From the NCBI GenBank assembly GCA_963722075.1, contig CAVRJM010000001.1, positions 1,088,001-1,152,000 on the forward strand: DNA of 64,000 nucleotides. Reading direction: 5' to 3'. The number at the start of each line of letters is the position of its first letter. Within the stretch, counting starts at the first letter, position 1. Source of the DNA: Candidatus Babeliales bacterium (GTDB lineage Bacteria; Babelota; Babeliae; Babelales; JANWKD01). The position numbers and the translations under genes are program-made. The notes beneath the pieces were generated by a model. It was not told the origin of the DNA. It was given only the letters and a program-made list of their open reading frames with translations, and made no database searches. Shown piece after piece: positions 40,701-64,000 of this stretch.

Positions 40701-40839
40701 CTGGATCCTCACGTCGCTCACGCTCCTCAGGATGACAAATAACTCAAAATGTTATTCCGATCCAGCCCTCGCTCAAAGAGCTTCGACGGACAAGGCGCTT
40801 ACCTCGTCGAAGTTTTAATGTAGACGGGTGGGAATCCAG
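40701..40839. repeat. Palindromic repeat units with nested second-class hairpins
   Basis: CTGGATCCTCACGTCGCTCACGCTCCTCAGGATGACA (almost identical to 55335) followed by GTTATTCC-[insert]-GGAATCCAG. Confidence 0.85.
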
Positions 40840-40840
40840 A

Positions 40841-41323: not shown

Positions 41324-41335
41324 TTTAATCTCCAT

Positions 41336-41821: not shown

Positions 41822-41832
41822 AAAAACTCCAT

Positions 41833-42489: not shown

Positions 42490-42632
42490 AAAAAACTCCA
42501 TTTTAAAAAAGAATTACTTCTATAAAAAAGTATATTAAATAATAACAAAATGTCAATTACAAATGCTTATGTAGCGCTTATTAATTGACAAGTAGAAAAC
42601 TTTACAAAGAAATTAAATAAGCTAATTAAAGC

Positions 42633-44270: not shown

Positions 44271-45233
44271 TTAATCTTTTTTCTCATATTGCTTTGTTCT
44301 TGATTCGGCTGCACGGCAAAATGGACATACTACTGTTGCTCGAGCTGATCCTGCTTTTAAGCTTTCCCAACAGGTTTTACAAATACATTTTTTACAACCA
44401 GTAGTAATAAATTGCTCGCCTTTTTCTATTTCTTCAAAGCAAATAGGGCATTCTAATTCTTCAGTTTCTTCCTCTTCTCCTTCAGTTTTCTGTTGGGGCT
44501 GCTGCGGTAACTGCTGAGGCTGCACTTGTGGTTGTGGGTACGGAATTTGTCGGGGTGGCACTTGTTGGTGTCGATGCTTAGCTTCTATATCAATCAACTG
44601 TTGTATTAAATCATAAATTTCTTCCATTCGATGCTCATAATATCTTATTTGAGCGTTGTTATCCCATTCATAGTGAATCGGAGTTAAATAAGTTACCATT
44701 TCATCTTCAGGAAGAGGCTCTCGCGCATCTATTTTGAATAAAAGTACTACTTTATCACGATTCAATTTATTAATAATATTTTTAATTCGAGGATCAAAGT
44801 CAATTGGAAAATGCCCATTCCTCTCTAATTGATCAACTAATTTATAAATCTCCTTTATCTCAGTAGGTAAGTTAATTTTTGCTTGTGATGCGGGAGACAA
44901 ATTAAATAAACCTTCTATGTCTCTTAAGGCATACTTAACATCCCAGGACTCCATTTCAATATTATGTTGCAAATAGGATCTTAATATATCCTTAACATTT
45001 TTTAACAAGGTGATTGCTTGTTGCTCAACCTGAGTCAGTTTTACAGGAATTTGTGGTGGCATATATGATAATGTGGGTGGCCCTAAAGGTGATACCGGTG
45101 GCTTGCCCGATAGTGCATCTTCCAGCTCAGTAAGCCGATTTTTTAAATCATTAAGATCATTTACTAACTGAGCGTTACTATTTAACATCATAACTAAAAA
45201 AAATAATATTACAGAAAAATGGCCTTTTTTCAT
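44271..45233 (-). CDS. Secreted RING-finger protein (putative E3 ligase effector)
   Basis: Signal peptide, PQ-rich linker and C-terminal CPIC...CKKCICKTC...CPFCR. Confidence 0.8.
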   Translation of the reverse strand: MKKGHFSVILFFLVMMLNSNAQLVNDLNDLKNRLTELEDALSGKPPVSPLGPPTLSYMPPQIPVKLTQVEQQAITLLKNVKDILRSYLQHNIEMESWDVKYALRDIEGLFNLSPASQAKINLPTEIKEIYKLVDQLERNGHFPIDFDPRIKNIINKLNRDKVVLLFKIDAREPLPEDEMVTYLTPIHYEWDNNAQIRYYEHRMEEIYDLIQQLIDIEAKHRHQQVPPRQIPYPQPQVQPQQLPQQPQQKTEGEEEETEELECPICFEEIEKGEQFITTGCKKCICKTCWESLKAGSARATVVCPFCRAAESRTKQYEKKD

Positions 45234-45249
45234 TTTTATCCTTTATTTT

Positions 45250-46396
45250 CAGGACTTACGCATTGGTCGAAAGTTCTGATTGGGACTTGAAATAAATAAA
45301 AAAGGGTGCTTCAATTTTGTGAATTAAACAACAAAAGCAAAAAAGAAGGACACCCGAAATGAGAATAACAAATACAAATGAAGAATCAAGCACACCAAAA
45401 TATGTAATGGGTTTATTAAAAACAACGGCACGAAAAGTTTGCACAAATATTTCTGAAACACTGGGAATAATGCATGATGTGCTCAATAGGGAAGTTGAAA
45501 AAGCAGCCCAGAATGCAGCAGAAATAACAAGCTCATTACAAAATGTTGCTCTAGAAAGTCTTAGCAATTGCGAAAGATATTTGATAATCGATGATACTCC
45601 CGTAAATAAGCAATATGCTAACGATATTGAAGGATTAGAAATTGTTTATGATAGTAGTGAGAAAAGATCAGCTTTGGGATTACGGTCTGTAATTGGCATG
45701 ATCACTGATACCAGAGTAAGAATACCGATTGATGCGGAGATTATGATAAGCAAAGTATTTGGAGAAACCAATTACAAGACAAAAAGTGAAATTGCTTACA
45801 TTATTATAGAGCGTGTTCTAGGATCAATTCGGTTTAATTGGTTAATTGCAGATGCCCATTATGCGACTGAATACCTTCTGCCAAAGCTTTTTAACAGGTC
45901 AATAAAATTTCTGATGAAAATTCCCAGAAATCGCGTTGTTACTATTAACAATAAAACAGGACAATTGCAAAAAATTTTACGTTTGAAAAAAAATAACAGA
46001 TTTGCTTGTGGATACGGCACTATTTTTGGTCTTTCCTGTTATTTCTATGTGTTAAAAATTGATAAGGAAAAAATTATGTATCTTATCAGTAGCCATCAGC
46101 TCGGCAAAGAGAAGCTAATTTCTACATATAAGATTCGTTGGCAAATTGAATGCTTCAATAGAACTGCCAAACAACTTCTTGGATTCAGCGAATGCCAAAT
46201 GCGTTCTTTTAACATGCAGCGTGCGCATTTACTTTTCGTGTTATGGGCTTATGCTTTAGCCGACATAAGGCGGGTAAAAGATAATTTCGACAATACTGAA
46301 CAAGCTGTCAGATCCTTTCGGGTCGCAAAACCCCCTACACCATCTAGTTTATTTTATGCTTTTGAAGAGAACTCTTATGCTCTTGCGTAAGTCCTG
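45250..46396 (+). mobile_element. IS701/IS4-superfamily insertion sequence
   Basis: Perfect 13-bp TIR CAGGACTTACGCA / TGCGTAAGTCCTG and a 7-bp direct repeat TTATTTT on both sides. Confidence 0.9.
45359..46390 (+). CDS. DDE transposase (IS701-like)
   Basis: LIIDDT, IADAHY and YKIRWQIECFNRTAKQLLG motifs. Confidence 0.88.
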   Translation: MRITNTNEESSTPKYVMGLLKTTARKVCTNISETLGIMHDVLNREVEKAAQNAAEITSSLQNVALESLSNCERYLIIDDTPVNKQYANDIEGLEIVYDSSEKRSALGLRSVIGMITDTRVRIPIDAEIMISKVFGETNYKTKSEIAYIIIERVLGSIRFNWLIADAHYATEYLLPKLFNRSIKFLMKIPRNRVVTINNKTGQLQKILRLKKNNRFACGYGTIFGLSCYFYVLKIDKEKIMYLISSHQLGKEKLISTYKIRWQIECFNRTAKQLLGFSECQMRSFNMQRAHLLFVLWAYALADIRRVKDNFDNTEQAVRSFRVAKPPTPSSLFYAFEENSYALA

Positions 46397-46490
46397 TTAT
46401 TTTTTATATTTCTTTTTTTGATAATGAAAAAAAATATTGATACATTGCAACTATTTTTTTAATACTAATAAAAATCTATAAGGATAAATT

Positions 46491-47516
46491 ATGGTATTTC
46501 ATATTATATATTGTTGTTTTTTTGCTTTTCTTCCCCTTCTATGCCAACCGCCCAAACTTCTCAATTGTGGTGCCACCTGTTATTTAAATGCAGCCACTCA
46601 AGCACTCTTGGCTATTAATCCGCTTAAAAATTTTTTACAATTAAATCCAAATGTTTATGCCCGAGGGTCGTTTGAAAATTCATTTCAACAATTAATAACT
46701 GCTGCGCCGCCGCTTGGCTTACCAAATCGTCAATTAATGAATACCTATGCAAAACAAGGCGCGAATATTATTGCCGGGTTATCACAAGGCAATCCCCTTG
46801 GTCAACAAGATGCATCGGAATTTTTAGGAGAGGTACTTGACCGGTTACGTACCAAGGGAAGAGAAGATAAAGAAAAAACGATTCGTCAATTTCTGAGTAA
46901 CATAATGGGTATACTTATTTATTCACAAATTGAATGCCCTCTTTCAGAATCACAATCTTATATTGCATCAAAACATACTAGCACTACGTATTATCTTTCA
47001 TTGCCAGTAAAAACAGCTTATGAGTTGCGTTCACTTGAAGAATGTTTATATGAATACTTCCAACCAGAACAGATTGAATTTAATGACCAAGAATGCAGGA
47101 AAACCAGCCAATTAGAGCACATTTCTTCTATTTTTATGGTGAGCTTAAGTAGGTATATTTTTGACATTGAAACACTAGAGGCTAAAAAATTAAGTCATTC
47201 TATACACGTTCCACTTACTTTCGATGTGCAACCATATTTAATACAAAAGCAAAATCATAATTTATATAAACTCATCGCATGCGTTGTGCATCATGGAACA
47301 GCAGCAGGAGGTCATTATGTTGCCTGTGTAAAATATGATAACCAGTGGTATCTTTGCGATGATACAACCATAACTAAGATCACTAAAAAAAAAGTAAAAC
47401 AATATGCCTCAATGGGATATATTTATATTTATGAACAAGAATCGTATACTACTATTAAAAAACAACTTGCTCATTTGAAACGAAGATTGAAAAGATTGTT
47501 AAGTCAGCTTCGCTGA
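46491..47516 (+). CDS. Secreted ubiquitin-specific protease (peptidase C19/USP)
   Basis: Cys box LLNCGATCYLNA, QQDASEFL, His box HHGTAAGGHYVA and WYLCDD. Confidence 0.9.
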   Translation: MVFHIIYCCFFAFLPLLCQPPKLLNCGATCYLNAATQALLAINPLKNFLQLNPNVYARGSFENSFQQLITAAPPLGLPNRQLMNTYAKQGANIIAGLSQGNPLGQQDASEFLGEVLDRLRTKGREDKEKTIRQFLSNIMGILIYSQIECPLSESQSYIASKHTSTTYYLSLPVKTAYELRSLEECLYEYFQPEQIEFNDQECRKTSQLEHISSIFMVSLSRYIFDIETLEAKKLSHSIHVPLTFDVQPYLIQKQNHNLYKLIACVVHHGTAAGGHYVACVKYDNQWYLCDDTTITKITKKKVKQYASMGYIYIYEQESYTTIKKQLAHLKRRLKRLLSQLR

Positions 47517-47550
47517 GCTTTTGAATGTAAAAATGAAATAATTTATTTGC

Positions 47551-47759
47551 TGGATCCTCACGGTGCTACGCACCTCAGGATGACATTCGTTAACCTGTCA
47601 CTCTGAGGCCGTTATACCGTAGGAATCCAATTATAGAATTAATTCATTATTGTCATCACGAGCTTGCGTGGTGATCCATTAATAAAATTCATTACCTCTA
47701 TTTGTAGCCTGGATTGCTTCGTAAGCCATGTCCGCCGAAGCCCCTGGATCGCAACGACA
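47551..47759. repeat. Cluster of four palindromic repeat units
   Basis: TGGATCCTCACG..CTCAGGATGACA; TGTCACTCTGAG..GGAATCCA; TGTCATCACGAG..GTGATCCA; CTGGATTGCTTCG..CGCAACGACA. Confidence 0.85.
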
Positions 47760-47853
47760 AACAATTGTAAATTTAATTTCTTTAAACACAGTATTTCTTG
47801 TATAGAGAACAAAGATTTAAAATTAAATAAAGATATAAACAAAGTGACTTCTT

Positions 47854-50421
47854 ATGAATATTGAACAATTTACCACCTCAAGCCAAGAGCTCATTAATAA
47901 AGCAGCATTTATCGTAAAGCAGTATAATAATCCGGCATTAACGCCGCTTCATTTATTAGCTGCAGCGCTCGAATCTGAATTTTGTCGCTCTTTTTTTGAA
48001 GTATTACATGTTTCATTAACAACACTTACTTCATTAGTACAAACTGAACTTAACAAATTACCCCAAGTACAAGGTGCGCAATTAGCAATTGATTATACCA
48101 CCGAACGTTTTTTAGATGAGGTACAAAAAGAAGCAACTAAATTGGGCGATTCCTACATAAGCTTGGAACACTTTTTGCTGGTATGGGCTACCACTACATA
48201 CCTTCCTCAATCAATTCGAGATTTTTTTAAGCAGTCCCATTTCACCTATACAGCGATCATGAATCATATGAAAACAATGCGCAAGGGAAAAAACGTGAAA
48301 GAAAAAAACGCTGAAAAACAATATCAAATTTTAGAAAAATATTGCCAAAATGTTACCGATCAAGCGCGCCAAGGAGTACTTGATCCGGTTATTGGACGGC
48401 ATGAAGAAATACGCCGTGTTATACAAATTCTTTCACGCCGCACCAAAAATAATCCGGTTTTAGTAGGAGAGCCGGGCGTTGGTAAAACCGCAATCGTAGA
48501 AGGAATTGCACAACGTATTATTAATAACGATGTTCCTGAAAGTTTGCGTAACAAACAAATATTTTCTTTAGATTTAGGATTACTAATCGCTGGCACTAAA
48601 TATCAAGGGGAATTTGAAGAGCGCATTAAAGGAATTTTAAAAGAAATTGAAGAGCGTCCTGATGATGTTATTTTGTTTATTGATGAATTGCATATGATTA
48701 TCGGCGCGGGCGCTTCTGGTGGTGGCGGCATGGATGCTTCTAATTTAATGAAACCAGCACTTGCACGCGGACAACTTCATTGCATTGGGGCAACTACGCT
48801 CAAAGAATATAAAAAATATATAGAAAAAGATGCGGCATTAGAGCGGCGTTTTCAAAAAGTACTCGTAGAAGAACCAACGGTAGAAGATGCCATTTCAATT
48901 CTGCGTGGTCTTAAAGAACGGTATGAATTGCATCACGGTATTCGCATTAAAGATCAAGCGTTGGTTGACGCTGTTTTATTGGCTGATAAAAATATTGCTG
49001 ACCGTTTTTTGCCCGATAAAGCAATTGATTTAGTTGATGAAGCCGCAGCAATGGTAAAAATGTCAATTGATTCGCAACCATTTGAAATTGATCAATTAGA
49101 GCGCAAAATCAGACAATTAGAAATTGAAAAAGTAGCATTACAAAAAGAAAAAGAAGACAGCGCTGCACAAGAGCGACTTAAGCAATTAGATCACGAATTA
49201 CAAGAATTAAAAGAAAAAAATAAAACGTTACTCAATCAATGGAAAGCAGAAAAAGAGCCGCTTGAAAAAATTAATAAAATAAAAGAAAAAATAGAACTTG
49301 CCAATGTTGAATTTCAGCAAGCAGAGCGTGATGGTAACTATGCACGTGCTTCAGAAATAAAATATGGCACCTTAGTAAAATTGGAGCATGAACTTGCTCA
49401 ATTACAAGAAAAATTAAAATCACTTTCTACGCACATGATTAAACAACAAGTTGATGAACATGATATTGCCAAAGTAATATCTCGTTGGACCGGGATCCCG
49501 GCAGAAAAATTACAAACTAATGAAGCACATAAAATTTTAACCATGGCTGATATTCTTAAAAAACGAGTAATTGGGCAAGATGAAGCGATTGAAAAAATTA
49601 CGCATGCAATTCAATTGCATCGCACCGGTTTAGTTGATCCTAATAAACCAATTGGCTCGTTTCTTTTCTTAGGACCTACGGGTGTAGGTAAAACAGAAGT
49701 TGCTAAAACGCTCGCTGATTTTCTTTTTAATGATCCTAAACGCATTATCCGTATTGATATGTCAGAATACATGGAAAAACATGCCGTAGCACGCCTTATT
49801 GGTGCACCACCGGGTTATGTTGGTTATGAAGAAGGCGGCCAACTAACTGAGCAAGTACGCCAACATCCATATAGCGTGGTGTTATTTGATGAAATAGAAA
49901 AAGCGCATCCAGATGTTTTTAATATTTTTTTACAAATTCTTGATGAAGGCCATTTAACTGATAGCCAAGGGCGTACCGTTTCATTTAAAAATTGTATCAT
50001 TATTATGACTTCTAATATCGGCTCTGATATTATTTTACAAGCGGAATCCATTACTGAAAAAGTTAAACAACAAGTTGAGCAACTCTTGCATCAACGTTTT
50101 AAACCGGAATTTTTAAACCGAATTGATGCACTAGTATTTTTCCATCAACTTACGCCGGAAGATGTACAACATATTGCTCAATTACAAATTCATGAATTAA
50201 AAGAACGCCTTACCGAACGTCATATCAATGCAACCATTGATGAAGCGGTGATTAAAAAAGTAGCACAAGAAGGTTATGTAAAAGAATTTGGTGCCCGCCC
50301 GCTCAAAAGAACCATTCAGCGGCTTATTACCGTGCCAATTTCACAATACTTACTGAAACATCCTGATACAAAAACAATACGTGTAGCACTTGAAAAAGAT
50401 GAAATTGTTATTAAAGGATAA
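47854..50421 (+). CDS. clpB: Chaperone ClpB
   Basis: Two AAA+ modules ([16 protein letters not shown]), a long M-domain coiled coil and GARPLKR. Confidence 0.96.
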
Positions 50422-50465
50422 GAAAATACGTTACACCGCTTTTCGTGATGACGAAATCAGAAAAC

Positions 50466-50495
50466 TGTCGTTGCGAGTTTACGAAGCAATCCAGG
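50466..50495. repeat. Palindromic repeat unit
   Basis: TGTCGTTGCGAGTTTACGAAGCAATCCAGG, an inverted near-copy of 56863..56892. Confidence 0.85.
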
Positions 50496-50594
50496 TTAAA
50501 AATGCAAATGTCGATTTCTACTAGACAAAATACTTAAGCATACGTTATTATTGGGCACAAGAATATTAACACACAAATAGTTGAAGGAAATAAC

Positions 50595-51530
50595 ATGACA
50601 ATATTCAAAAAAAATATTTTTTTTACCTTAACATTATCTCTGTTAGCTCAATCATGTATTGAAGCAAAATATTGGAATTGGGATCAAGATCCTGCTGATC
50701 CAGAAGCAGTAAAGCGTATATTTGAACAAACTATGGAGAGCGAATTACAACCACATAGTCAATCTGAAAAAGTGAAAAACACCATTCAAAACGCTAAATC
50801 AAATAAAGCAAACAATTTTAAGCAACTCGTTGCATGGAAATATTTATCAAAATATGAAGCAAAATCTGAAGCAGAGCAAGGTGGTCGCGACGAATCTATT
50901 AATTTAGCATTAAACATTATGTATGCTGAAATCGGAGATCAGTTAGATAATGCTATCAAAAAGCAAGACAAAGCTGCAACTGATGAAGATCTAAAGAGAA
51001 TTTATCATAAAATAAAAGATGTTATTAAACAAAAAATGCGCTCTGCTTACCGTCCTGCAACGGTGTTACAAGATTTCACTAAACCAGATTCTTACAATAC
51101 TACCAAAATAGAACAGTTGGTTAATCAAGAAGTTGCTAAACTCCCTAGTAATTTTAAAGAAAAACATTTTAGTGAAAATGATATCGTAGAGGTTTATCCA
51201 CAAAATAAAGTTGATCAAATGCGTTTACGCGTTCAACAAGGTAAAGTATGGCGAGAAGATGATTGTGCTGTTTGTGGCGAAGAATTTAGTACGCTTGGCA
51301 AACGAGTAAATTTAGAATGTGGGCACGCAATAATGTGCATGAAATGCGCTGTTGCCTCCATGCATATCTATAAAAAATATAACTGTCCAGTTTGCAGAGC
51401 CGCTATTGATCCAAATGATTTCTCACTCCGTTATCTCAAAAGTAATATGAAAGAATATGATTACAAAATATTTGAAAAGCTAGATCAGAATACCATGAAA
51501 CAAATCATGGATCTTTTTAAACGCGTTTAA
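50595..51530 (+). CDS. Secreted RING-HC (C3HC4) protein, putative E3 ligase effector
   Basis: Signal peptide; CAVC...CGHAIMCMKC...CPVCR. Confidence 0.85.
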   Translation: MTIFKKNIFFTLTLSLLAQSCIEAKYWNWDQDPADPEAVKRIFEQTMESELQPHSQSEKVKNTIQNAKSNKANNFKQLVAWKYLSKYEAKSEAEQGGRDESINLALNIMYAEIGDQLDNAIKKQDKAATDEDLKRIYHKIKDVIKQKMRSAYRPATVLQDFTKPDSYNTTKIEQLVNQEVAKLPSNFKEKHFSENDIVEVYPQNKVDQMRLRVQQGKVWREDDCAVCGEEFSTLGKRVNLECGHAIMCMKCAVASMHIYKKYNCPVCRAAIDPNDFSLRYLKSNMKEYDYKIFEKLDQNTMKQIMDLFKRV

Positions 51531-51534
51531 TTAT

Positions 51535-51560
51535 GAAGGGCCCTTTCACAGGGCCCTTTC
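51535..51560 (+). terminator. Intrinsic terminator
   Basis: AAGGGCCCT-TTCAC-AGGGCCCTT stem followed by a T-rich tract. Confidence 0.7.
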
Positions 51561-51605
51561 TTTATATTTTCTTATTTTTCTCTTTGGTAAAAAACAGAGT
51601 ATACG

Positions 51606-53327: not shown

Positions 53328-53330
53328 TTT

Positions 53331-54563
53331 ATGGTTTTTATATTTTTATTATTTTATTTATTATCTCTTACTCCACTGCAATCCATGGAGGCACCCGAAG
53401 ATGATTCCGTTACTTGTTTAATAGGCATATACAACTTCCACAAAGAGGCAGACATCGAAGCAGAAGGGATCGCTCTTGTAGAAAGCGCACTACAAGAATG
53501 GCTCATTACAAATCAGCCGGCAAAACGAGATTCCATTATTGATAATTTTATAAAATTATTAGAAGGGGCTTGCAAGTACAAAATACCTCCTTTAATAACT
53601 CTTACCTGCGTATATCTTACTAAATATTATAAAAACAATTTTGATACACCTGAAACTGCACCAGAAAAAACTGCAACACAAATACAAGAAACTGCACTGC
53701 GTTTATATAATGAATTGCTCAAACTAAATCCACAAGCAAAACACACAGAATTATTTAAATTGACGCAAATTAAGTCGAGTAATCAGAGTAATATTGTTAC
53801 ACAAGCTTTTATAGCAGAAGCTACTGCCACTCAACCTTATCTGCCACCACGAACTTCGCAACCAACTATAACAACCAAGCCTAAACCCGTTTTTAAAGAC
53901 GATAAACAGAATAGCATTGAACTACGCAGCAGTAATGAAACAACCTTTTACGCAATAGTAGATAAATCACCGATACCCCGTACTGATAACCCTACTAACT
54001 CTTTTATTGCTTCCGATCATTATCTTGTTACTTGCAATAAAAACGATATAAAAGTAGATAATCAAGCGCAAGGGCGTCGTTTTACTCTCCAAGGCCATAC
54101 AGCTCCAATTTTATCAGTACATTTTATTACCACCCATAAATTAATAAGCCGCTCACGCGATGGTTGTATCTTTTTGTGGAATTTAAATAAACAAACTTAC
54201 AAAGTATTATCAAATAATAAAGATGACAAACTACGAGCGCTTGCAATTGCGCAAGGTACTATGTTTAGTCTTCACGATAACCGTATAATCAAATTTTGGG
54301 ATAGAAGTAAAAAAAGCGCATTGCCAGTACATTCCGAGGTGTTGCCAATTATTTCGGATATTGCTCTTTTTAAAAATTGTTTAGTAGCTGCAGTAGCAAC
54401 CTATTTAAAAATATGGCCTAAACATGATAGTTTTTATGAAACTCGCGATATAAACTTAAAGAATTCTTGCCCAATTACTAAATTGAGCGCTTCTGATAAC
54501 CTTTTGATGGCTTTCAATGAACAGGGTAAAGTGCATATTGTAAGTGCCGTAAAAAAAGAGTAA
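53331..54563 (+). CDS. Secreted WD40-repeat protein
   Basis: Signal peptide followed by MEA; LQGHTAPILSV...SRSRDGCIFLWN and IIKFWD. Confidence 0.75.
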   Translation: MVFIFLLFYLLSLTPLQSMEAPEDDSVTCLIGIYNFHKEADIEAEGIALVESALQEWLITNQPAKRDSIIDNFIKLLEGACKYKIPPLITLTCVYLTKYYKNNFDTPETAPEKTATQIQETALRLYNELLKLNPQAKHTELFKLTQIKSSNQSNIVTQAFIAEATATQPYLPPRTSQPTITTKPKPVFKDDKQNSIELRSSNETTFYAIVDKSPIPRTDNPTNSFIASDHYLVTCNKNDIKVDNQAQGRRFTLQGHTAPILSVHFITTHKLISRSRDGCIFLWNLNKQTYKVLSNNKDDKLRALAIAQGTMFSLHDNRIIKFWDRSKKSALPVHSEVLPIISDIALFKNCLVAAVATYLKIWPKHDSFYETRDINLKNSCPITKLSASDNLLMAFNEQGKVHIVSAVKKE

Positions 54564-54569
54564 TAACTA

Positions 54570-55307
54570 ATGAGCCATTACACATTTGTTTTAAATTGGA
54601 AAATGTATTTTTCTTTCGATCAGGCAAAGCAATGGCTTGAAGATAATAAAAACGCGCTCGAAGAATTGGCGCATGATCAATCTTTCATTTTGTGCCCTTC
54701 GCATGAATCATTATGGCTTACCACTGCAGCGCTAGAAGGTGCGGCCATAGAAATAGGAGCACAACAGTGCTCGGCGCATGAACTCGGTGCTTATACAGGT
54801 CAAGTATCAGCTGCTTCATTGCATGATATGGCAATTAACTATTGCCTTGTTGGCCATAGCGAAGCGCGCATGGCATTTCATGAAACTAATGAGCAGTTGT
54901 ATAAAAAACTAGAATTGCTTACCAAGTTTGGAATAATTCCCATTTTTTGTATCGGAGAAACGCTTAAGGAGCATGAACAAAAAAAAACGTACGAGGTGCT
55001 CCATCAACAAGTAGAACCATTACTACGAGCTACTTCATTACATAACACTCCTTATTTTATTGCCTATGAACCTGTTTGGGCTATCGGTACTGGCAATGTT
55101 GCTTCTGCTTATTATATTCAGGAAGTATTAGCCTGGATAAAGGATATATTCACAAATGCTACCGCACCAATCACGCTATTTTATGGGGGTACCGTTAATG
55201 CTGACACGATTGAATCTTTAAAAGCAATTCCACTTATTGATGGCTTTTTAATTGGAAAAGCAAGTACAAATTTTCAAGAATTAAAAAAAATTGTATCATT
55301 GATGTAA
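54570..55307 (+). CDS. tpiA: Triosephosphate isomerase
   Basis: NWKM, GAYTG, GHSE, AYEPVWAIGTG and YGG motifs. Confidence 0.95.
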   Translation: MSHYTFVLNWKMYFSFDQAKQWLEDNKNALEELAHDQSFILCPSHESLWLTTAALEGAAIEIGAQQCSAHELGAYTGQVSAASLHDMAINYCLVGHSEARMAFHETNEQLYKKLELLTKFGIIPIFCIGETLKEHEQKKTYEVLHQQVEPLLRATSLHNTPYFIAYEPVWAIGTGNVASAYYIQEVLAWIKDIFTNATAPITLFYGGTVNADTIESLKAIPLIDGFLIGKASTNFQELKKIVSLM

Positions 55308-55334
55308 ATAGGAATTTGATATTCTGAAATTTGA

Positions 55335-55417
55335 TGGATCCTCACGTCGCTTACGCTCCTCAGGATGACGGGCAGCATTTATGTCATTCTGAGGCCTTTA
55401 GACCGTAAGAATCCAGG
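55335..55417. repeat. Tail-to-tail palindromic repeat pair
   Basis: TGGATCCTCACGTCGCTTACGCTCCTCAGGATGACG...TGTCATTCTGAGGCCTTTAGACCGTAAGAATCCAGG. Confidence 0.85.
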
Positions 55418-55453
55418 TATACATATAAATAATCTTAATTATTGGAGAAAAAT

Positions 55454-55780
55454 ATGATCTATGGCTTATTATTAACACTCTATTTGATAGTATGCTTATT
55501 CCTTATCCTATTGGTTCTGATTCAAAAGGGTAAAAGCTCTATGGGAATTGGTAACTTAGGTGGTGGCGTTCAAATGCTTTTTGGCGGGTCAGGTGGCCAA
55601 GATTTATTCCAAAAAACCACGTGGGCATTAGGAGCTATCTTTATGGCTGGTTCATTATTTTTATCTATTCTTAAAACACATCAATATAATCAATCACGCT
55701 ATATTACAGAACGCCCAGCCATCACCATGCCTAAAGAAGCTCCGGTAAAACCTGAAGCTCCTGCACCAACGCCACAATAA
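55454..55780 (+). CDS. secG: Preprotein translocase subunit SecG
   Basis: LVLIQKGK..G..GG...LFG..G...K.T pattern; tpiA-secG synteny. Confidence 0.92.
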   Translation: MIYGLLLTLYLIVCLFLILLVLIQKGKSSMGIGNLGGGVQMLFGGSGGQDLFQKTTWALGAIFMAGSLFLSILKTHQYNQSRYITERPAITMPKEAPVKPEAPAPTPQ

Positions 55781-55784
55781 AACT

Positions 55785-56558
55785 ATGGTTATATCTCTGA
55801 TCAATTCTATTGGTAGTTATGTTATATCAATGTGTAATATGATGGGGCTATTTGCACTTTTTTTATTGAACGTCATAAAGACCGCATTCACTACTAAACT
55901 TAAAATGAAAAAGGTGCTAGCGCAACTTGATGAAATTGGCTTTAACTCGCTGGTGATCGTTGTTTTAACGGGCACCTTCACCGGTGCGGTATTAGCATTG
56001 CAAACGTATATCGGGGTGCGCCGGTATGGTGGTGAAGAATTTATCGGGCCCATTGTTGCACTAAGTATGGCACGAGAATTGGGGCCGGTGATTACCGGCT
56101 TAATGGTAACGGGCCGCTCGGGATCTGCAATTGCAGCAGAAATAGGAACCATGCGCATCACTGAACAAATTGATGCGTTACAAACCTTACGCATTAATCC
56201 TTTACAATATTTAGTAGTGCCACGCCTTTTGGCAGGCGCTTTTATTTTACCGTTTCTTACGATGTTTTCGGTAATTTGCGGCATTATCGGCGGCTATTTT
56301 ATTGCTACCAGCGTTTTGGGCCTTAATGGAAACCAATATATTAACGGCATCAAGAAGTATTTAGAATATTCTGATGTTACCAATGGTCTTATTAAATCAA
56401 GTGTTTTTGGATTTATTTTAACCTGGGTAGGCGCCTTTAAAGGGTACCTTGCTGATGGTGGTGCGCGCGGTGTTGGTTTGGCTACCACGCAAAGTGTGGT
56501 CATGGGATCTATATTGCTACTGCTCGCTAATTATTTCTTAACCTCAGCACTGTTTTAA
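55785..56558 (+). CDS. mlaE: MlaE family ABC permease
   Basis: RELGPV, GRSGSAIAAEIGTMRITEQIDAL and GGARGVG motifs. Confidence 0.92.
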   Translation: MVISLINSIGSYVISMCNMMGLFALFLLNVIKTAFTTKLKMKKVLAQLDEIGFNSLVIVVLTGTFTGAVLALQTYIGVRRYGGEEFIGPIVALSMARELGPVITGLMVTGRSGSAIAAEIGTMRITEQIDALQTLRINPLQYLVVPRLLAGAFILPFLTMFSVICGIIGGYFIATSVLGLNGNQYINGIKKYLEYSDVTNGLIKSSVFGFILTWVGAFKGYLADGGARGVGLATTQSVVMGSILLLLANYFLTSALF

Positions 56559-56656
56559 AAGTACAGAGTAGGAATTTTTCATGACCTAATACGCTGTATA
56601 CATGGCCACGAATTATACATTTTATATTCAAAGCCTAAAAAAGATGTATTAAAAGT

Positions 56657-56892
56657 CGTCGTTGCGAGCTTGCGAAGCAATCCAGGCTAAAAACGAGCCG
56701 GTATATAGCAGCAAAAAGTAATATTATAACATTATGATTTTTTACTATTCCAGAAAACAAATAAAAGAGAAAATAATATAATTATTCATCAAATTAATAA
56801 ATTAATACTAAGATAATTGTAAGTAACAAACATAACAAAACATAAAGAAATTTATAACTGAACCTGGATTGCTTCGTAAACTCGCAACGACG
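56657..56892. repeat. REPIN/MITE-like element: 30-bp inverted units around an AT-rich core
   Basis: CGTCGTTGCGAGCTTGCGAAGCAATCCAGG ... CCTGGATTGCTTCGTAAACTCGCAACGACG. Confidence 0.85.
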
Positions 56893-56958
56893 TATTGCAG
56901 ATTCAAGGCAATTGGTCAGGAGTAAGATCTTCTTGCATGCAAAAGCAAAGATGTAGAA

Positions 56959-57714
56959 ATGATTAAAATTATTAATTTACGTAAAAAATTTGATCATCGC
57001 TGGATTACCGATGGGGTCGATTTAGAAATTCCTGAAGGTAAGATGACGGTTGTTATCGGAAGGTCTGGTGAAGGTAAATCGGTATTACTCAAACAAATTA
57101 TTGGCCTTATTACTCCCACTTCAGGTGAAATTATTGTTGATGGCATAGATATTGTACCAATTGCGCAAAAAAACCCTGATGAAATTTTTAAACAATTTGG
57201 TTATGTATTTCAATTTGCAGCACTACTTGATTCTTTAAATGTGTTTGAAAATGTTGGTATCAGCTTACTAGAACAAGGAATGCCGCCGCAACAAGTGTTA
57301 CCAATCGTTAAAGAACGCTTAAAAATGGTTAATTTAAAAGAAGAGATTCTCAATCGAATGCCATCAGAAATATCAGGTGGTATGAGAAAGCGGGTAGGGC
57401 TTGCGCGCACGCTTATTAGTAAGCCAAAAATTATTCTCTATGATGAACCAACCACCGGTCTGGATCCAATTACCTCACGCGTTATTCATGAACTTATGTT
57501 TGATATGCAAAAGCAGCTTAATATCACGTCTATTGTTATTTCGCATGACGTTGAAATTTTTAAATACGCCGATTATGTTGCCTTATTGCATGAAGGCAAG
57601 ATTCGCTTTCATGGGGACGCCAAAACCATTTGGGAATCAGATAACCCCTATATTTATCAATTCATTCGCGGCCTCACTGAAGGGCCTATTCAAACAGAAG
57701 CTAAACAGGCATAA
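56959..57714 (+). CDS. mlaF: MlaF family ABC ATP-binding protein
   Basis: GRSGEGKS, ISGGMRKRV, LYDEPTTGLDP and SHD motifs. Confidence 0.9.
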   Translation: MIKIINLRKKFDHRWITDGVDLEIPEGKMTVVIGRSGEGKSVLLKQIIGLITPTSGEIIVDGIDIVPIAQKNPDEIFKQFGYVFQFAALLDSLNVFENVGISLLEQGMPPQQVLPIVKERLKMVNLKEEILNRMPSEISGGMRKRVGLARTLISKPKIILYDEPTTGLDPITSRVIHELMFDMQKQLNITSIVISHDVEIFKYADYVALLHEGKIRFHGDAKTIWESDNPYIYQFIRGLTEGPIQTEAKQA

Positions 57715-57722
57715 GCCAACCA

Positions 57723-57823
57723 TGTCATCCCGATCCGCCGCCGCGCAGCTTTGGAGATACAAGGCCTATCCCATCGAAGTTATTTATTCCGCTTTTGTCA
57801 TCCCGAGCTCGCGTGGGGATCCA
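57723..57823. repeat. Palindromic repeat units
   Basis: TGTCATCCCGA... and TGTCATCCCGAGCTCGCGTGGGGATCCA. Confidence 0.8.
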
Positions 57824-58030
57824 TTAATTAATCCCTAGCAATCCTCCCTTAATCATTGTTTCTATTTGAATTTTTTTATAGAAAAAAGCAACTTTAATAG
57901 TAAAAACAGCTTACGGCAAGCCTTTCTTATTGACACAAATCATATTATTGTTATAATTGTAATTTGAATGGATATTTTTAGATAAATAATTACAAACAAG
58001 TAATTTTCGCGGACAATTCAAGGGATTATA

Positions 58031-59026
58031 ATGGGGACTTTTGCTAAACCATCTTTATTGTTTATTTTACTCCTTTCTGCTGCATTACCAAGCTTTGGCA
58101 TGAATAAAACTAAATCTTTTTTTAAAAAAGGATTAGGAATAGCGGCAACAGTAGGAACAGGAGCATTAGTAGTCACCAATTATGGCCTTTCATTTGCACT
58201 TCCTGGCTCATTAGTTTACTCAAAGATCAAAGGTTCTATTAAGGAAAAGAAAGAATTACCCGAACCACCTGAATCAGTAAAACAATTTATTCAGGCAAAT
58301 TTAGCAATACAAGGAGTCCATAATAGTGATCAAATACAAATAAAACATGAACCAGTAGCAACACAAGCTAAAGCTGCATTGCATAGCCCATCGGTTTTTA
58401 ACAATACTGTTTTTGTTCCTTGTTATCCTAAATATTCACGATCTGAACAAAAAATACTACCACGCTCCATATTACAAGATACATTAGAAAAAAATGATGA
58501 GGATTATTATGAGCACGATAGAAAAATGCAACTAGCTGAACAATCTTTCATATATCGCCATGAAGCAAATCATATTAAATATCACGATACAAAAAAAATT
58601 TTAGGTGTATCTATATTTATTCCATGCGCTATCAAGGGAATATCATTTTTATTAAAAAAATCGTATAGACCAAAACAATTGCTTAAAAATCTCTTAGCAA
58701 TACCTGGCGGCATACTCACAACATATACTAATATTATTTTTTCCACCGCTTATAGAAGAATGACTGAACAACGAGCTGATGATGATATTGTTGCAGATGA
58801 TCCTAAAATACTTAAGGCTGGAATAAAATTCTTTAAACAAATGCAACGATATGAGCCCCATGAAAGAATCCCCGCTTCTTTTTCTGATCATTTATTGAAA
58901 ATAGCTACTAACATACGTACCCATCCTCGTCTTCAGCACCGCATTAATCGTTTAAAAGAGCGTAAGAAGGCACTTGAGGGATTAAAGCATAAAAAAATAA
59001 AAAAAACAAAATGGAATAATTATTAG
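58031..59026 (+). CDS. Secreted M48-like zinc metallopeptidase
   Basis: HEANH zinc motif, downstream EQRADD and THP; signal peptide followed by MNK. Confidence 0.7.
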   Translation: MGTFAKPSLLFILLLSAALPSFGMNKTKSFFKKGLGIAATVGTGALVVTNYGLSFALPGSLVYSKIKGSIKEKKELPEPPESVKQFIQANLAIQGVHNSDQIQIKHEPVATQAKAALHSPSVFNNTVFVPCYPKYSRSEQKILPRSILQDTLEKNDEDYYEHDRKMQLAEQSFIYRHEANHIKYHDTKKILGVSIFIPCAIKGISFLLKKSYRPKQLLKNLLAIPGGILTTYTNIIFSTAYRRMTEQRADDDIVADDPKILKAGIKFFKQMQRYEPHERIPASFSDHLLKIATNIRTHPRLQHRINRLKERKKALEGLKHKKIKKTKWNNY

Positions 59027-59048
59027 GAGCTTTTTAGAGGACAATCAT

Positions 59049-59291
59049 ATGTATAAATATTTATATCTCCTGCTTTTTCTATCGTTACCCTGCATCGCCA
59101 TGGATCGCAGCGTATCGCATAAACGGAATTCAAATGCTTCATTTTATTTAGGAAAAAATGTAACAACATTCTCTCTAGAACGACTTCAGCTCCAAAGAGA
59201 GATTGAAGATGCAAAACTAAAGCAAGAAGAAGTGCGCGAGCAAATGAAACAACCCGAAAGTTATTTTAGTAGGTTTTTTGGCAATAATTAA
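59049..59291 (+). CDS. Small secreted hypothetical protein
   Basis: GAGG RBS; signal peptide followed by MDR; coiled coil. Confidence 0.6.
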   Translation: MYKYLYLLLFLSLPCIAMDRSVSHKRNSNASFYLGKNVTTFSLERLQLQREIEDAKLKQEEVREQMKQPESYFSRFFGNN

Positions 59292-59713
59292 AATAGTTTA
59301 TTTTTTATACGCCTAAATAAGCCATGCACTTCATAATCATTAATGGCGGTATTAAAAAATGCTTTAGCTCCTAAAATATTGATTCCATATCCTAAACTTC
59401 CCAAACTTACCGCTCCCCAAAAAGCGCCAACAGCAAGAGTTAATTTATCTAACTTTTTTTCGTTAAAAATTGATAAAGCTCCTAACCCAGTGATTACCCC
59501 AAATCCCGTCATCAAATAGCCGGTTGGTCGCTGGCTAGCAATCTTGGTGCCTGCCAGATTTTTTCGCTGTTCCTGCCGCTGCTGTAAGTTTTTTTGTTTG
59601 GCTTTTACTATTTGTTGCTGCAAATGACGTATTTCTTCTTGTTTCTCTGCCTCCGTCTGCATAGAATGAGCAAAAGCCGGCATTAAGAGAAGTAAAAGAA
59701 TATAATGAATCAT
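59288..59713 (-). CDS. Secreted hypothetical protein with 2 TM helices
   Basis: AAGGA RBS; signal peptide followed by MQT; coiled coil and TM pair. Confidence 0.65.
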   Translation of the reverse strand: MIHYILLLLLMPAFAHSMQTEAEKQEEIRHLQQQIVKAKQKNLQQRQEQRKNLAGTKIASQRPTGYLMTGFGVITGLGALSIFNEKKLDKLTLAVGAFWGAVSLGSLGYGINILGAKAFFNTAINDYEVHGLFRRIKNKLF

Positions 59714-59924
59714 ATTATTTTTTCCTTTAATTTATATCCCTCATATATTTATAAACTACCATAAAATCGGTCTTTTGGGAAAAGCCATGATTTAATAGCA
59801 GAGCAGAATAATATTTCTAATATAAATTATTATTGTTTTAATAAATTCACCTGAGATCAATTTGACACTAATGCAAATTTTTGAAATAGTAAATATATAT
59901 AATTCAAAAAACAGATAGGGACCT

Positions 59925-60965
59925 ATGTTATTTCAATTAATCTATATACTACTTTTTACCATAACTATTTTTAAACCAATTTACACACAAGAACCATCAG
60001 CTGCTGCTGCTGCTGAAAAAAATAGCTATCCGGCTACATATTATAACTATGAATATAATGAAAAAAATTTAGAGGGAATGTTCAATATACCTGGATGCCA
60101 AGGCGGCCCAGATTGCCAATGCAGCAGCGCAGTACTTTATAAAAACTGCACCAATTCATTTATATGCGAGTCGGTAATTAATGAAAATGGTAACGGTATT
60201 GCCTGTTCAGTATCTGTATCTGAAGAAAACCCTTACTTTGAACAATTAATTTCAATTGCAGCCAATAACAGTAATAAATGCATAGAAAAATTTGAAGAAA
60301 CCATAAGGGAAGCGGAGCAAGCTTTACATGAACAACAGGATGGCCAAGACTCTCAAGAACTAAAAGAAGCATATACAATATTGAAAAATGCCACAAATGA
60401 ATATAGAAAATACAGCTCACCAGAACAAATTAAAGACAGCCTTTATCGACATACAGATGGGAAAAAGTATATTACTAATATATTTTTAAACCCACGCAGA
60501 CCACTTATTTTTTATTCAAAAGAATTTTTAGAAAAACGATTTAAAAATATTTCATCTGAATATTTAAAAAATTTTCTTGAAAATGAAGCAATGATTCCGA
60601 TGGGAATTTTAGTAACGCATTTGGCAAAGCAACAAACTGAACGCCTTTTAGCATTTGTTGTTCTTTGCAAGTTTGTAATACAACCAGATAAAGAACATCT
60701 CGTTGATTCAAGCTTTATTTATCATGACAAATTCGGCCCTTTTATGGTTGCCGCCCTTGCATTAGACGTAGATTGCCCTGATAGGTATATATTCAAAAAA
60801 ACTTCAGAGTCTGATGAATATCAATTTTTAGAACTACATGAATCAATAACGCCTCCACATTATATTGATGGCTTTACCATATCTAAAGGATATCAAAAAC
60901 TTAAAAAAGAGAAGCCTGATATTTTTGAAAAAGGTTTTATTACAATCTCAGAGTCATCAAATTAG
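59925..60965 (+). CDS. Secreted hypothetical protein, Cys-rich N-terminal half
   Basis: Signal peptide and a long ORF in AT-rich DNA. Confidence 0.65.
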   Translation: MLFQLIYILLFTITIFKPIYTQEPSAAAAAEKNSYPATYYNYEYNEKNLEGMFNIPGCQGGPDCQCSSAVLYKNCTNSFICESVINENGNGIACSVSVSEENPYFEQLISIAANNSNKCIEKFEETIREAEQALHEQQDGQDSQELKEAYTILKNATNEYRKYSSPEQIKDSLYRHTDGKKYITNIFLNPRRPLIFYSKEFLEKRFKNISSEYLKNFLENEAMIPMGILVTHLAKQQTERLLAFVVLCKFVIQPDKEHLVDSSFIYHDKFGPFMVAALALDVDCPDRYIFKKTSESDEYQFLELHESITPPHYIDGFTISKGYQKLKKEKPDIFEKGFITISESSN

Positions 60966-61060
60966 TTATTTATAGCATTTTTCTCAATTTCTTGATTTTT
61001 AGAAGATCTTTATCGGTAGACTACCAATAAAGATCTTTTTTACTTTAATGAAGAATCTCT

Positions 61061-62455
61061 ATGAAAAAAAACCTAATTATTTTATTAACTATTATTCCGT
61101 TATCACTATCTGCACAACCACCAGCTTTAAGAAATTTTGGCAATAGCTGCTATGTTAATGCCTTAATACAAGCCCTCTATGCTACTAAACCCCTCAACAA
61201 TCTCTTATTAAGCACAGAAGTACCGCTAGAATTTATTTCTATTCCTGCTCGCACTTATAAAGATTTAGTGATCAATTTTATTAACGGCAATCAATCAGCT
61301 ATCGATGCAGCTTTATTTGATTTTTATAACAGCATAAAAGGAGTTTATGCAACGGGAACTGGAGCTGGGCCTTCACAACCTCCGCCAGGTATCGTTATCC
61401 CAAAGCAGGAACAACCAGCAGGCAGACGGCAGCCAGTAGGCAGAGGTCGTCGTCCAACGCCTAAATCAGCGCTTGAAAAAGCAATTGAAGAAAGTAGAAA
61501 AGAAATGTTCGAGTTTACTAAGCAACATGCGCAATTAATTACTACCATTGCACGCGCAAAAAACCCTACTTTTGATAAGTTATCTGCCAAAGAAAAGCAA
61601 GATATCCAATATTCAATTAGCGACGTTTTGAATACCTTTAATCAAGAGCGACAGCAAGATGCACACGAATTTCTTATGTATATTTTAAAAGAGCTACAAA
61701 AAATTGCACCCACTCAAGCAGAAGAACTTTTTTTCTATTTGCTCTCTAATAATGAACAAGATGCTATTCTTAATATACCCACCTATACACCGGCAAAAGT
61801 TGTTATTGATTATGCAATGGTATCAGGGCAATACCAATTGTTAAGTGAAATCTCATACTTCGATTCACTTTATGAAGGGTTAAAGAAGGCATTACGAGGA
61901 TATAAAATAGCAATCACACCTTCAATTTTCATCTGTGCATTAAATAGAACCGTTTCAGGTCGTAATATTGATACAACAGCAATTAGTTCCTTAAAAATTA
62001 GACATCCGGTGAGAATTCCATTCATTTTAAATCTGAGTCCTTATACCACAGGTGATGAGCCAACAGCTTTTGATTTATATGCTATTGCTGTTCATCGAGG
62101 CCTATCAGCAAATGCTGGTCATTATGTCACCTATGTCAAGCACAACAATCAATGGTATTTATGCAATGACATGCAAATAAAACCAGTAACGGCTCAAGCA
62201 GTACGTAATGAAATAGAAACTGATGGCTACATTCTTTTTTACCAACGGATAGAGGAATATTTTGAAGAAGAAGAGCCTGTAATTATTGAAGAAGAGTTGC
62301 CCCTTGAAGAGCCTGAAGAAATTCTTATTGAAGAACCCGTGGAAGTTCCGCCTGCTCAAAAAGAGGAAGAAGTATCGTCATTAGAACAAGCGCTGCGTTG
62401 GCTACAAATTAAATTGCAAACATTGCTAAAGGCACTCACTCATTTGTCATCCTAA
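61061..62455 (+). CDS. Secreted ubiquitin-specific protease (peptidase C19/USP)
   Basis: LRNFGNSCYVNA, QQDAHEFL, HRG..NAGHYVTY and WYLCND motifs; acidic tail. Confidence 0.9.
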   Translation: MKKNLIILLTIIPLSLSAQPPALRNFGNSCYVNALIQALYATKPLNNLLLSTEVPLEFISIPARTYKDLVINFINGNQSAIDAALFDFYNSIKGVYATGTGAGPSQPPPGIVIPKQEQPAGRRQPVGRGRRPTPKSALEKAIEESRKEMFEFTKQHAQLITTIARAKNPTFDKLSAKEKQDIQYSISDVLNTFNQERQQDAHEFLMYILKELQKIAPTQAEELFFYLLSNNEQDAILNIPTYTPAKVVIDYAMVSGQYQLLSEISYFDSLYEGLKKALRGYKIAITPSIFICALNRTVSGRNIDTTAISSLKIRHPVRIPFILNLSPYTTGDEPTAFDLYAIAVHRGLSANAGHYVTYVKHNNQWYLCNDMQIKPVTAQAVRNEIETDGYILFYQRIEEYFEEEEPVIIEEELPLEEPEEILIEEPVEVPPAQKEEEVSSLEQALRWLQIKLQTLLKALTHLSS

Positions 62456-63733: not shown

Positions 63734-64000
63734 ATGAAACATCCGCTTTGGCTCGTTAATGATTTTCTTTTTATTTTATTTTTAATGATAATTTGTTTTA
63801 TGTTTATTTCTCGTCAAAAAGTCCCAACCAGTGTCAGCTTAATCCCTCGCGGAGAAATTAAGCTTCCTAAAAAAGCGGTCTCCAAGATTGACCTCAGTAA
63901 AATTTATACTAATGATCTTTTTGAAACATACCAGGCACCTGAACCTAAAGTTGAAGAAATTCCAAAAATTACCATGCCTGAACCGCCTACCCCTAAACCG
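63734..64000 (+). CDS. Partial membrane-anchored Pro-rich protein (runs off window)
   Basis: AAGGA RBS; open frame MKHPLWLVNDFLFILFLMIICFMF...PEPPTPKP to the window end. Confidence 0.65.
   Translation, partial: MKHPLWLVNDFLFILFLMIICFMFISRQKVPTSVSLIPRGEIKLPKKAVSKIDLSKIYTNDLFETYQAPEPKVEEIPKITMPEPPTPKP

Follow-up and report, generated by a model that had tools for sequence, protein, structure and literature searches.

A palindromic leucine-heptad tag on predicted exported proteins of a Babeliales bacterium and some of its relatives

We analyzed a 64,000-nucleotide stretch of DNA from a Candidatus Babeliales bacterium (hereafter the window; C1:1,088,001-1,152,000 of genome G000, which measures 1.47 Mb at 35% GC) and found that a short leucine-rich helix on a predicted exported RING protein (RING1) and two predicted exported USP-type deubiquitinases (USP1 and USP2) is a tag carried by 30 proteins of this genome. 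The tag is enriched in the proteome, lies at protein termini, is portable between unrelated proteins, is maintained by selection at the protein level, and has a lineage-fixed length and a symmetric layout; that it is real, portable, and under selection we regard as close to certain. The Babeliales (Dependentiae, TM6) are diderm parasites of protists with a Sec pathway and a type II secretion system (T2SS) that includes two gspD copies (PMC4776705), and signal peptides have been reported on 44% of Chromulinavorax proteins (PMC6561590). In Babela, the genome holds genes for one RING protein and three secreted C19 deubiquitinases, RING and USP proteins are among the predicted exports, and type II is the sole secretion system detected (PMC4378268). 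The tag bears on the question of how Dependentiae deliver and place many predicted effectors when type II is the sole system reported. Genomes of relatives are given here by other G numbers and families by f labels.

An initial annotation of the window had described a 15-residue leucine pattern on one RING and two USP proteins, and had named occurrence at background frequency and random positions as the outcome that would speak against it. The three 15-mers (45111-45155, minus strand; 47466-47510 and 62393-62437, plus strand) translate exactly as described, and their carriers are indeed an E3-like RING protein and two UCH-family (PF00443) USP proteins. Among the 1,412 open reading frames (ORFs) of G000, obtained with our own ORF caller, the strict motif had eight matches against none in 100 shuffles, the relaxed motif 15 against a shuffle mean of 0.15, and the bare leucine pattern 35 against a shuffle mean of 7.2. 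With the three seed proteins excluded, and with 24% as the expectation because that share of sequence windows lies at termini, the matches were terminal in 5/5 (strict, p = 8e-4), 12/12 (relaxed, p = 4e-8), and 24/29 proteins (bare leucine, p = 6e-11). Signal-peptide-like ORFs made up 5/5, 12/12, and 25/29 of the same three sets. Tested across the proteome, the motif thus proved enriched both in number and in position. Signal peptides and cleavage sites were assigned by a hydrophobicity heuristic plus inspection, hence are predicted; the heuristic flags 606 of the 1,412 ORFs, some membrane proteins among them.

A position-blind, leave-one-out profile (threshold score 15.5) passed 32 G000 proteins, 27 of which are signal-peptide-like by the heuristic, with the match directly behind the signal peptide in 23, near the C-terminus in eight, and internal in one, ClpB. 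The ClpB match is a false positive in a cytoplasmic protein, and the ClpB coiled coils of relatives also exceed the threshold. Setting aside ClpB together with C1:525636, which has an uncertain start and a C-terminal hydrophobic segment, leaves the 30 tagged proteins, which fall into 26 homology clusters. The motif spans 19 residues, not 15, with an extra Leu/Ile four residues upstream, and its consensus reads L-E-x-E-L-x-x-L-K-x-K-L-x-x-L-x-N-x-L; four core positions are 96-100% Leu in 83 sites, a figure that is partly circular because the seeds were Leu patterns. A Gln at the predicted +1 position, which the earlier reading had added to the shared features, does occur in the three proteins and is no part of the motif: both USPs start with a family-wide Q-P-P, and Gln precedes the first Leu in just 2 of 23 N-terminal tags. 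No Pfam family covers the tag in the tagged proteins scanned, no NCBIfam family does so in the five scanned, and a crude search of G000 found no other shared C-terminal 12-mer.

Further copies of the tag lie outside the ORF list, at C1:1079960 (the L097:4960-5030 region), a truncated duplicate of the C1:1081462 gene, and in short open frames (23 and 83 aa) at C1:343435 and C1:824173; all three are probably gene relics. A MerR-like regulator that has no signal peptide (G000 C1:689783-690154; L126 in G021; L218 in G168) ends in a tag-like Leu helix, in tag-poor families as well, and may be a false positive or else the origin of the motif. Our alignment A2 leaves out three G000 rows, the MerR-like and other non-exported terminal matches, and internal matches.

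Tag length is a property of the genome. The median run of heptad a/d positions is 6 (19 residues) in G000 (n = 30), G004 (n = 9), and G037 (n = 9), 8 (25 residues) in G048 (n = 9), and 10 (33 residues) in G033 (n = 16), while runs of 8-9 are found in G119 (n = 11) and of 9-14 in G123 and G134-G138. USP homologues match the length of their own genome (6 in G000, G003, and G004; 10 in G033). In each class the leucine spacing is palindromic (4-3-4-3-4; 3-4-3-4-3-4-3; 4-3-4-3-4-3-4-3-4), and K-x-K, rare elsewhere in the tag, occupies the central gap in 12/12 full-register tags of G048, 13/13 of G033, and 12/21 of G000. A strict heptad sustained across 33 residues is, going by the leucine register, coiled-coil geometry. 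Leucine codons at matched positions resemble one another no more than shuffled codons do (p = 0.42 in G000, 0.53 in G004, 0.61 in G048, and 0.98 in G033), indicating that the likeness is kept by selection at the protein level and not by recent duplication; the same test gave p = 0.044 in G037, where the set includes tandem paralogues. Net charge has a median of +1 in the 30 G000 tags, with RING1 (-2 across the 15-residue core, which belongs to a run of six a/d leucines) and USP1 (+5) as the two extremes; it ranges from 0 to +4 in G048 and from +1 to +8 in G033, and is net acidic in G004 and G037. The tags have a mean hydrophobic moment of 0.45 and a mean hydrophobicity of 0.32, with aromatics at 1.2% of positions.

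The cargo varies widely. Thirty-five tagged or near-threshold G000 proteins were scanned, yielding Nudix, NADAR, Macro, MavL-like ADP-ribosylhydrolase, endonuclease/exonuclease/phosphatase, and DnaJ families; one further scanned protein matched a BrxC helical domain, the remainder gave no or weak matches, and 28 of the 35 are without a clear enzyme or chaperone family. The DnaJ protein (C1:1064190) bears the bare Leu pattern at its C-terminus at a score of 10.6, under threshold. Tagged proteins of relatives include ankyrin proteins, a dual-specificity phosphatase, a metallophosphoesterase, a PPDK-N domain protein, and further USPs. To judge by these family names, the cargo looks like enzymes that would act on host ubiquitin, ADP-ribose, and phosphate marks.

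Within single families the tag changes position or disappears. One family without a known domain has it N-terminally in G114, C-terminally in G004, G020, and G048, internally in G119, and not at all in G000 (two copies) and G022; Macro proteins have it C-terminally in G000, N-terminally in G020, and internally in G138, with one G000 copy untagged; and a metallophosphoesterase-related family has it N-terminally in G119 and C-terminally in G033, and lacks it in G000. Held-out matches in tag-rich genomes (n = 32) divide into 19 N-terminal, 5 C-terminal, and 8 internal, the last mostly behind Pro-rich linkers. At locus L162 (G048 C1:1020000-1037000), five tandem exported genes each have a 25-residue tag placed internally between domains, so a free terminus is not required. 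Linkers beside the tag contain 13.5% Pro against a background of 4%, and those of the USPs range from about 6 to about 90 residues; a second tag occurs in 2/84 tagged proteins and a transmembrane segment likewise in 2/84. Among loci picked by USP homology, 8/14 have a C-terminal tag with strict Leu, and of the NADAR proteins picked by cargo 3/4 are tagged.

To map the tag across relatives, a cross-genome profile built from the 83 sites was run over 214 Babelota genomes; 57 of them had at least one match and 22 had at least three (three in f1, one in f10, five in f11, two in f17, and 11 in f12). The multi-copy match of G060 (f12) proved to be a repetitive coiled coil, leaving about 21/214 multi-copy genomes, and no genome of f3 (32 genomes), f19 (68), f13 (14), or f6 (14) had more than two matches. 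This search under-counts: in G001, with a score of 0, both the USP and the NADAR proteins bear the tag. The controls were 42 genomes reached via ClpB loci, 41 of them outside Babelota by title; two of the 42 had one or two weak matches. A K-x-K DNA pattern gave 11-59 matches against 1-11 for a reversed control in G000 and ten f12 genomes, and elsewhere stayed near control (highest in G142, 12 against 5); the distribution is patchy even inside f12, whose tag-rich genera are g30, g36, g76, g78, g85, and g86. In 400-kb samples of G016 (about half of it) and G022 (about a third), none of the signal-peptide-like ORFs (118 and 144, respectively) had a terminal Leu heptad, and relaxing the letters brought out no terminal heptad enrichment either, while G000 in the same test showed 39-fold and 28-fold enrichment.

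A tree of T2SS proteins (21 genomes, three genes, midpoint-rooted) places the tag-rich lineages in two deep clades, f1+f11+f17 and f12, and in f21. Two histories fit this, an ancient tag with frequent loss or a tag that has moved sideways. USPs of tag-poor families at L012 (G010), L007 (G040), and L009 (G023) end in amphipathic helices with Tyr, Phe, or Val replacing Leu; these helices, on one f7 and two f20 USPs, are possibly diverged tags. Searching 1.84 billion representatives with signal peptide plus tag returned 33 matches, of which nine were inspected (four new tagged proteins, three from the query or its own genome, and two repeat coiled coils) and the other 24 judged by length and number of stretches alone. 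No named carrier outside Babeliales emerged from this search, which is too insensitive to exclude one.

What the tag does is less firmly drawn. We consider it an evenly balanced proposition, and the best single mechanism among those compared here, that the tag is a coiled-coil strand which docks after export on a single shared partner, most likely an envelope protein of the bacterium. Removal of the signal peptide by Sec would leave the tag terminal, at the freshly exposed N-terminus or at the C-terminus, or else embedded in a Pro-rich linker. It would fold there into a helix whose a and d heptad positions form an all-Leu stripe. It would then complete a helical bundle with its partner, whose groove would set the length and read the centre, K-x-K in most lineages. 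Given its palindromic spacing and centre, such a tag would be accommodated in both orientations, and this would account for its use at either end of a protein. Docking would sort a subset of host-directed enzymes, comprising deubiquitinases, an E3, ADP-ribose-processing enzymes, phosphatases, and, in some lineages, ankyrin proteins, toward a common fate: they could be packaged in the infectious particle, tethered at the vacuole or the surface of the parasite, or helped through an export step. The initial suggestion of a secretion, chaperone, or docking tag thus survives in that the helix is portable, terminal, on exported cargo, and suited to sorting or docking; its stricter form, a secretion tag proper, is weakened because type II secretins occur in two or three copies in 37/37 genomes, tagged or not, and because 0/40 ankyrin ORFs of G000 are tagged. 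The tag is not an obligatory type II secretion signal.

Those same two counts also weigh against docking on a shared envelope partner, as do several further results. Cargo of the same types occurs untagged in other lineages and in G000 itself, which means that export does not in general depend on the tag; the lineages are not independent, the length classes going back to about three clades; and the K-x-K centre is absent from G004 and G037 (0/8 each). A host partner that varied between host lineages would yield a similar lineage drift. No reader emerged from the candidates examined. The T2SS of G000 comprises GspC, two GspD, E, F, G, further pseudopilins, L, and M, and neither charge nor stalk length of its components (GspC tail, GspL/M stalks, net charge) covaried with the tag. 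A 755-aa AlgE-like barrel is present in 41/41 genomes and hence does not track the tag, and a 300-aa barrel is present in 19/41 and was not found in 7/7 f12 genomes; of the barrels considered, which also included ones of 605 and 282 aa, these two were profiled across genomes. An exported coiled-coil family is present in 30/30 genomes and so does not track the tag either, no gene family recurs beside tagged genes, and an acidic mirror pattern stands at background in five long-tag genomes. A search of G000 for acidic heptads gave no reader candidate.

Some of these candidates deserve description in their own right. The gspC-gspD-gspL-gspM-gspD cluster (63734-64000 of the window, and L374) encodes two different secretins, and the C-terminal helical tail of GspC comes in two clade-specific forms. 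The 755-aa outer-membrane barrel (L369:489-2753, minus strand; G000 C1:1172486-1174753) usually lies between nfo and aspS, often near the T2SS cluster; f12 and certain other families have additional paralogues. The exported coiled-coil family present in 30/30 genomes, brought up by the acidic mirror search, matches no known family and has a conserved G-N-W motif; the hairpin of this helical protein (L377:251-1780, minus strand; G000 C1:623548-625080) is about 21 residues longer in f12, f7, and f20. It is a weak lead as candidate partner, because the lengthening happened once, in a clade that also holds tag-poor genomes, and gives no distinction between lineages with 25-mers and those with 33-mers.

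The tags might instead pair with each other through a Leu coiled coil, forming mixed oligomers or a dense store with no separate reader, in the manner of microcompartment encapsulation peptides, which aggregate their cargo; we hold this to be fairly unlikely. A uniform length in each genome is equally expected if every tag must pair with every other, and all-Leu cores favour trimers. The G000 g-e' pairs in parallel register, with Glu at g and Lys at e, are mostly neutral or complementary (12 opposite against 1 like-charged basic of 54), so parallel self-pairing also fits them, a further point against a separate partner. Encapsulation peptides, terminal amphipathic helices of 18-20 aa, self-associate by coiled coil (PMC7221423), and Chromulinavorax particles contain dark-staining periplasmic material (PMC6561590), which would fit such a store if that species carries the tag. 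In G033, by contrast, self-pairing would set Lys against Lys in both orientations with almost no opposite charges (22 like-charged against 0 opposite of 64 parallel pairs; 38 against 2 of 96 antiparallel pairs), which argues for a different, more acidic partner; the G048 tags likewise run from neutral to basic, and one tag per protein would build small oligomers and no network. A dedicated version of pairing, in which the acidic RING1 helix and the basic USP1 helix form a specific E3-deubiquitinase heterodimer, had been raised by the initial annotation, and it can point to opposite charges, adjacent genes, and matched heptads. It is not borne out and appears very improbable: the same helix is found on 28 other proteins, the two charges are merely the extremes of a range, and G003 and G004 keep a tagged USP at uvrC-USP-clpB where RING1, with its own sequence as query, was not found, which together make a dedicated pair unlikely. 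That query matched one of five genomes, across the tag region only. Moreover, 0/26 RING ORFs examined in relatives are tagged, and in G000 RING1 and an insertion sequence (IS) sit between uvrC and USP1, leaving the RING1 and USP1 genes divergent with the IS in between. Any two tags might still pair non-specifically.

Binding to a host protein after delivery, whether to CRM1 as a leucine-rich nuclear export signal (NES) or to another host helical groove, seems to us unlikely. NESs can be moved between proteins and function within flexible segments; the host cytosol is where the cargo must act, and export by CRM1 would keep the enzymes in the cytoplasm. The Leu spacing equals class 3 and class 4 NES patterns, but class 3 pattern matches are often false positives, and CRM1-bound class 3 helices have three turns and must end or turn at Lys568 (PMC5358978), whereas the tags run 5 to 9 turns, if the helix is as continuous as the sequence implies, and lengthen symmetrically by lineage. 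NESs also take L/I/V/F/M, in contrast to the nearly pure (if partly circular) Leu core of the tag. An amphipathic helix whose flanking lysines anchor its cargo to an anionic membrane, be it that of the parasite surface, of vesicles, of the vacuole, or of the mitochondrion, is quite improbable. Its hydrophobic moment and hydrophobicity, the Lys on either side of the Leu stripe, and the strongly basic tags of G033 would suit this role, but aromatics are scarce, the tags of G004 and G037 are acidic, and the stripe of a strict 4-3 heptad, continued for 33 residues, winds around a straight helix, which fits a coiled coil and not a flat bilayer. Membrane-binding helices have a broad, degenerate hydrophobic face with aromatics and, when long, 11/3 periodicity; with 1.2% aromatics, a Leu-only stripe, and 7/2 periodicity across 33 residues, the tag falls outside that class. 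That the motif is a coiled-coil pattern arisen by chance, or a neutral relic duplicated together with signal-peptide cassettes, is scarcely credible: ClpB, SMC-like, and MerR-like coiled coils do pass the threshold and some tagged genes are tandem paralogues, but the shuffle and position tests refute chance for G000, synonymous codons are randomised under the invariant Leu, and the signal-peptide-like ORFs of the two tag-poor samples had no terminal matches. The ESCRT-III MIM1 motif, with consensus (D/E)xxLxxRLxxL(K/R), was also compared and rejected; 0/83 sites match it, and LxxRLxxL alone occurs in 13/83.

Within the window (Table 1), RING1 consists of signal peptide, tag, Pro-rich linker, a helical region of no known family, a Q/P/E-rich linker, and the C-terminal RING finger. 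The neighbouring IS element is bounded by 13-bp perfect terminal inverted repeats and is not part of the tag system. The USP1 model has a USP fold with a mean predicted local distance difference test (pLDDT) score of 86, its best matches being Ubp8 and USP2 (E about 1e-23), and renders the tag as a separate helix (321-340) after the last USP strand at pLDDT 61-79, below that of the domain. In USP2 an acidic E/P-rich linker precedes the tag. The catalytic triad Cys30, His275, and Asp291 is invariant in 16/16 aligned USPs, and on fold and triad USP1 and USP2 are predicted to be active deubiquitinases of the USP (C19) type. A MoxR ATPase (62625-63608) precedes gspC here, likewise in G001 and G048. 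Four tandem small exported proteins with C-terminal hydrophobic segments lie at 40265-42501; the three that were scanned matched no Pfam family, and two end in a common F-G-G-Y tail.

Table 1. Tagged genes, their parts, and neighbouring features in the window
Feature	Position	Strand	Basis
RING1, 320-aa exported protein (predicted)	44271..45233	-	ORF
RING1 Sec signal peptide (predicted), residues 1-21	45171..45233	-	Sequence and hydrophobicity heuristic; cleavage site inferred
RING1 tag, N-terminal type, Leu23-Leu41, 19 aa	45111..45167	-	Translation; leave-one-out score 26.1
RING1 RING finger, residues 261-307	44313..44453	-	zf-RING_2 PF13639, E 1.3e-6
IS element between RING1 and USP1	45250..46396	+	DDE transposase 45359-46390, PF01609
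USP1, 341-aa exported USP-type deubiquitinase (predicted)	46491..47516	+	PF00443 at residues 23-314; alignment; model
USP1 tag, C-terminal type, Ile322-Leu340, net charge +5	47454..47510	+	Score 16.2, just over threshold
ClpB coiled-coil look-alike, internal, residues 510-528	49381..49437	+	Score 19.2
RING2, second exported RING protein, untagged (internal control)	50595..51530	+	Pfam; tag profile
USP2, 464-aa exported USP-type deubiquitinase (predicted)	61061..62455	+	PF00443 at residues 23-394; alignment
USP2 tag, C-terminal type, Leu441-Leu459, net charge +3	62381..62437	+	Score 22.7
gspC start, first gene of a gspC-D-L-M-D type II cluster continuing past the window	63734..64000	+	Context

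G000 has a second export feature. A small residue followed by Met and mostly Glu/Gln/Asn near the predicted cleavage site (the Met+1 feature) occurs in 176/551 other signal-peptide-like ORFs and 21/40 ankyrin ORFs, and in 2/30 tagged proteins and 43/791 non-exported ORFs (Fisher p = 0.001). It was seen in 34/144 ORFs of the G022 sample and 2/118 of the G016 sample; present in the one and not the other, it is independent of the tag. About 200 exported G000 proteins appear to start Met-Glu/Gln/Asn/Asp after cleavage, nearly exclusive with the helix tag; examples in the window lie at 53331-54563 and 58031-59026 (plus strand) and at 59288-59713 and 40841-41335 (minus strand). Met-Glu/Gln/Asn N-termini are NatB substrates in eukaryotes, and phytoplasmas offer a parallel to such N-termini, so the N-termini of these proteins could be eukaryote mimics. 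There may be two sorting classes, one of tagged and one of Met+1 proteins. Three ankyrin neighbours (G000 C1:1214603, C1:1216694, and C1:1217325) end in acidic-Trp motifs, which we take to resemble Atg8-interacting motifs; acidic-Trp motifs are not enriched in exported proteins (8/528 against 16/650).

We offer tentatively, as a possibility we would not favour on present evidence, that part of the Babeliales evolved its own effector-sorting code, in which a palindromic and reversible Leu tag of coiled-coil type, its length a lineage ruler for a dedicated envelope receptor, routes a selected set of ubiquitin- and ADP-ribose-editing enzymes across or onto the outer membrane, beside the Met+1 class. 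If true, such a code would give a Sec-dependent outer-membrane step a signal that is both linear and portable; that step might take place at the type II machine, for which no signal of this kind is defined. Being linear, the tag points to candidate effectors among proteins without a known domain and supplies a bait peptide for a reader, and its symmetric, genome-wide change of length on dozens of unrelated genes, under randomised synonymous codons, would document co-evolution with a single partner in an unusual way. A short tag functional at either terminus or within a linker would also be usable as a research tool. No description of the motif was found in the full-text literature searched, which takes in few subscription papers, or in the parts covered of three Dependentiae papers (PMC4776705, PMC6561590, PMC4378268); additional files of the Babela paper on expanded families and signal peptides could bear on novelty (PMC4378268).

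Among known systems, the encapsulation peptides of bacterial microcompartments (PduP P18, PduD D18, and PduL L20) are alike in being amphipathic helices of 18-20 residues at either end of unrelated enzymes that act as coiled-coil address labels (PMC7221423). Theirs are cytoplasmic enzymes bound for a protein shell, whereas the tag's cargo is predicted to be Sec-exported and host-directed, and the tag differs in its almost pure Leu at a/d, its palindromy, and its lineage-fixed length of up to 33 residues. As for self-association, the charge pattern of the tag allows it in G000 and disfavours it in G033. Leucine-rich NESs of classes 3 and 4 (mDia2, CDC7, X11L2) share portability and an identical spacing of hydrophobic anchors (PMC5358978), although the spacing Phi-XX-Phi-XXX-Phi-XX-Phi(-XXX-Phi) follows from how the motif was constructed; the tag helix exceeds the CRM1 groove, grows by whole heptads, and uses Leu only, and its uninterrupted heptads of 19-33 residues are not the three-turn helices of those classes. 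With type II substrates the tag shares cargo bearing predicted Sec signal peptides and a complete T2SS in the genome. The type II substrate signal is described as poorly defined (PMC6617341), whereas the tag is linear and portable and is found in part of the order, on a minority of exported proteins, where the machine is universal. A single helix usable at either end also sets the tag apart from modules of fixed polarity. The C-terminal domain of type IX secretion and the cohesin-dockerin pair likewise put one module on many exported proteins for one reader or scaffold, as folded units whose readers are known. The tag stands outside each of the families against which it was tested, yet it works like an encapsulation peptide or a dockerin.

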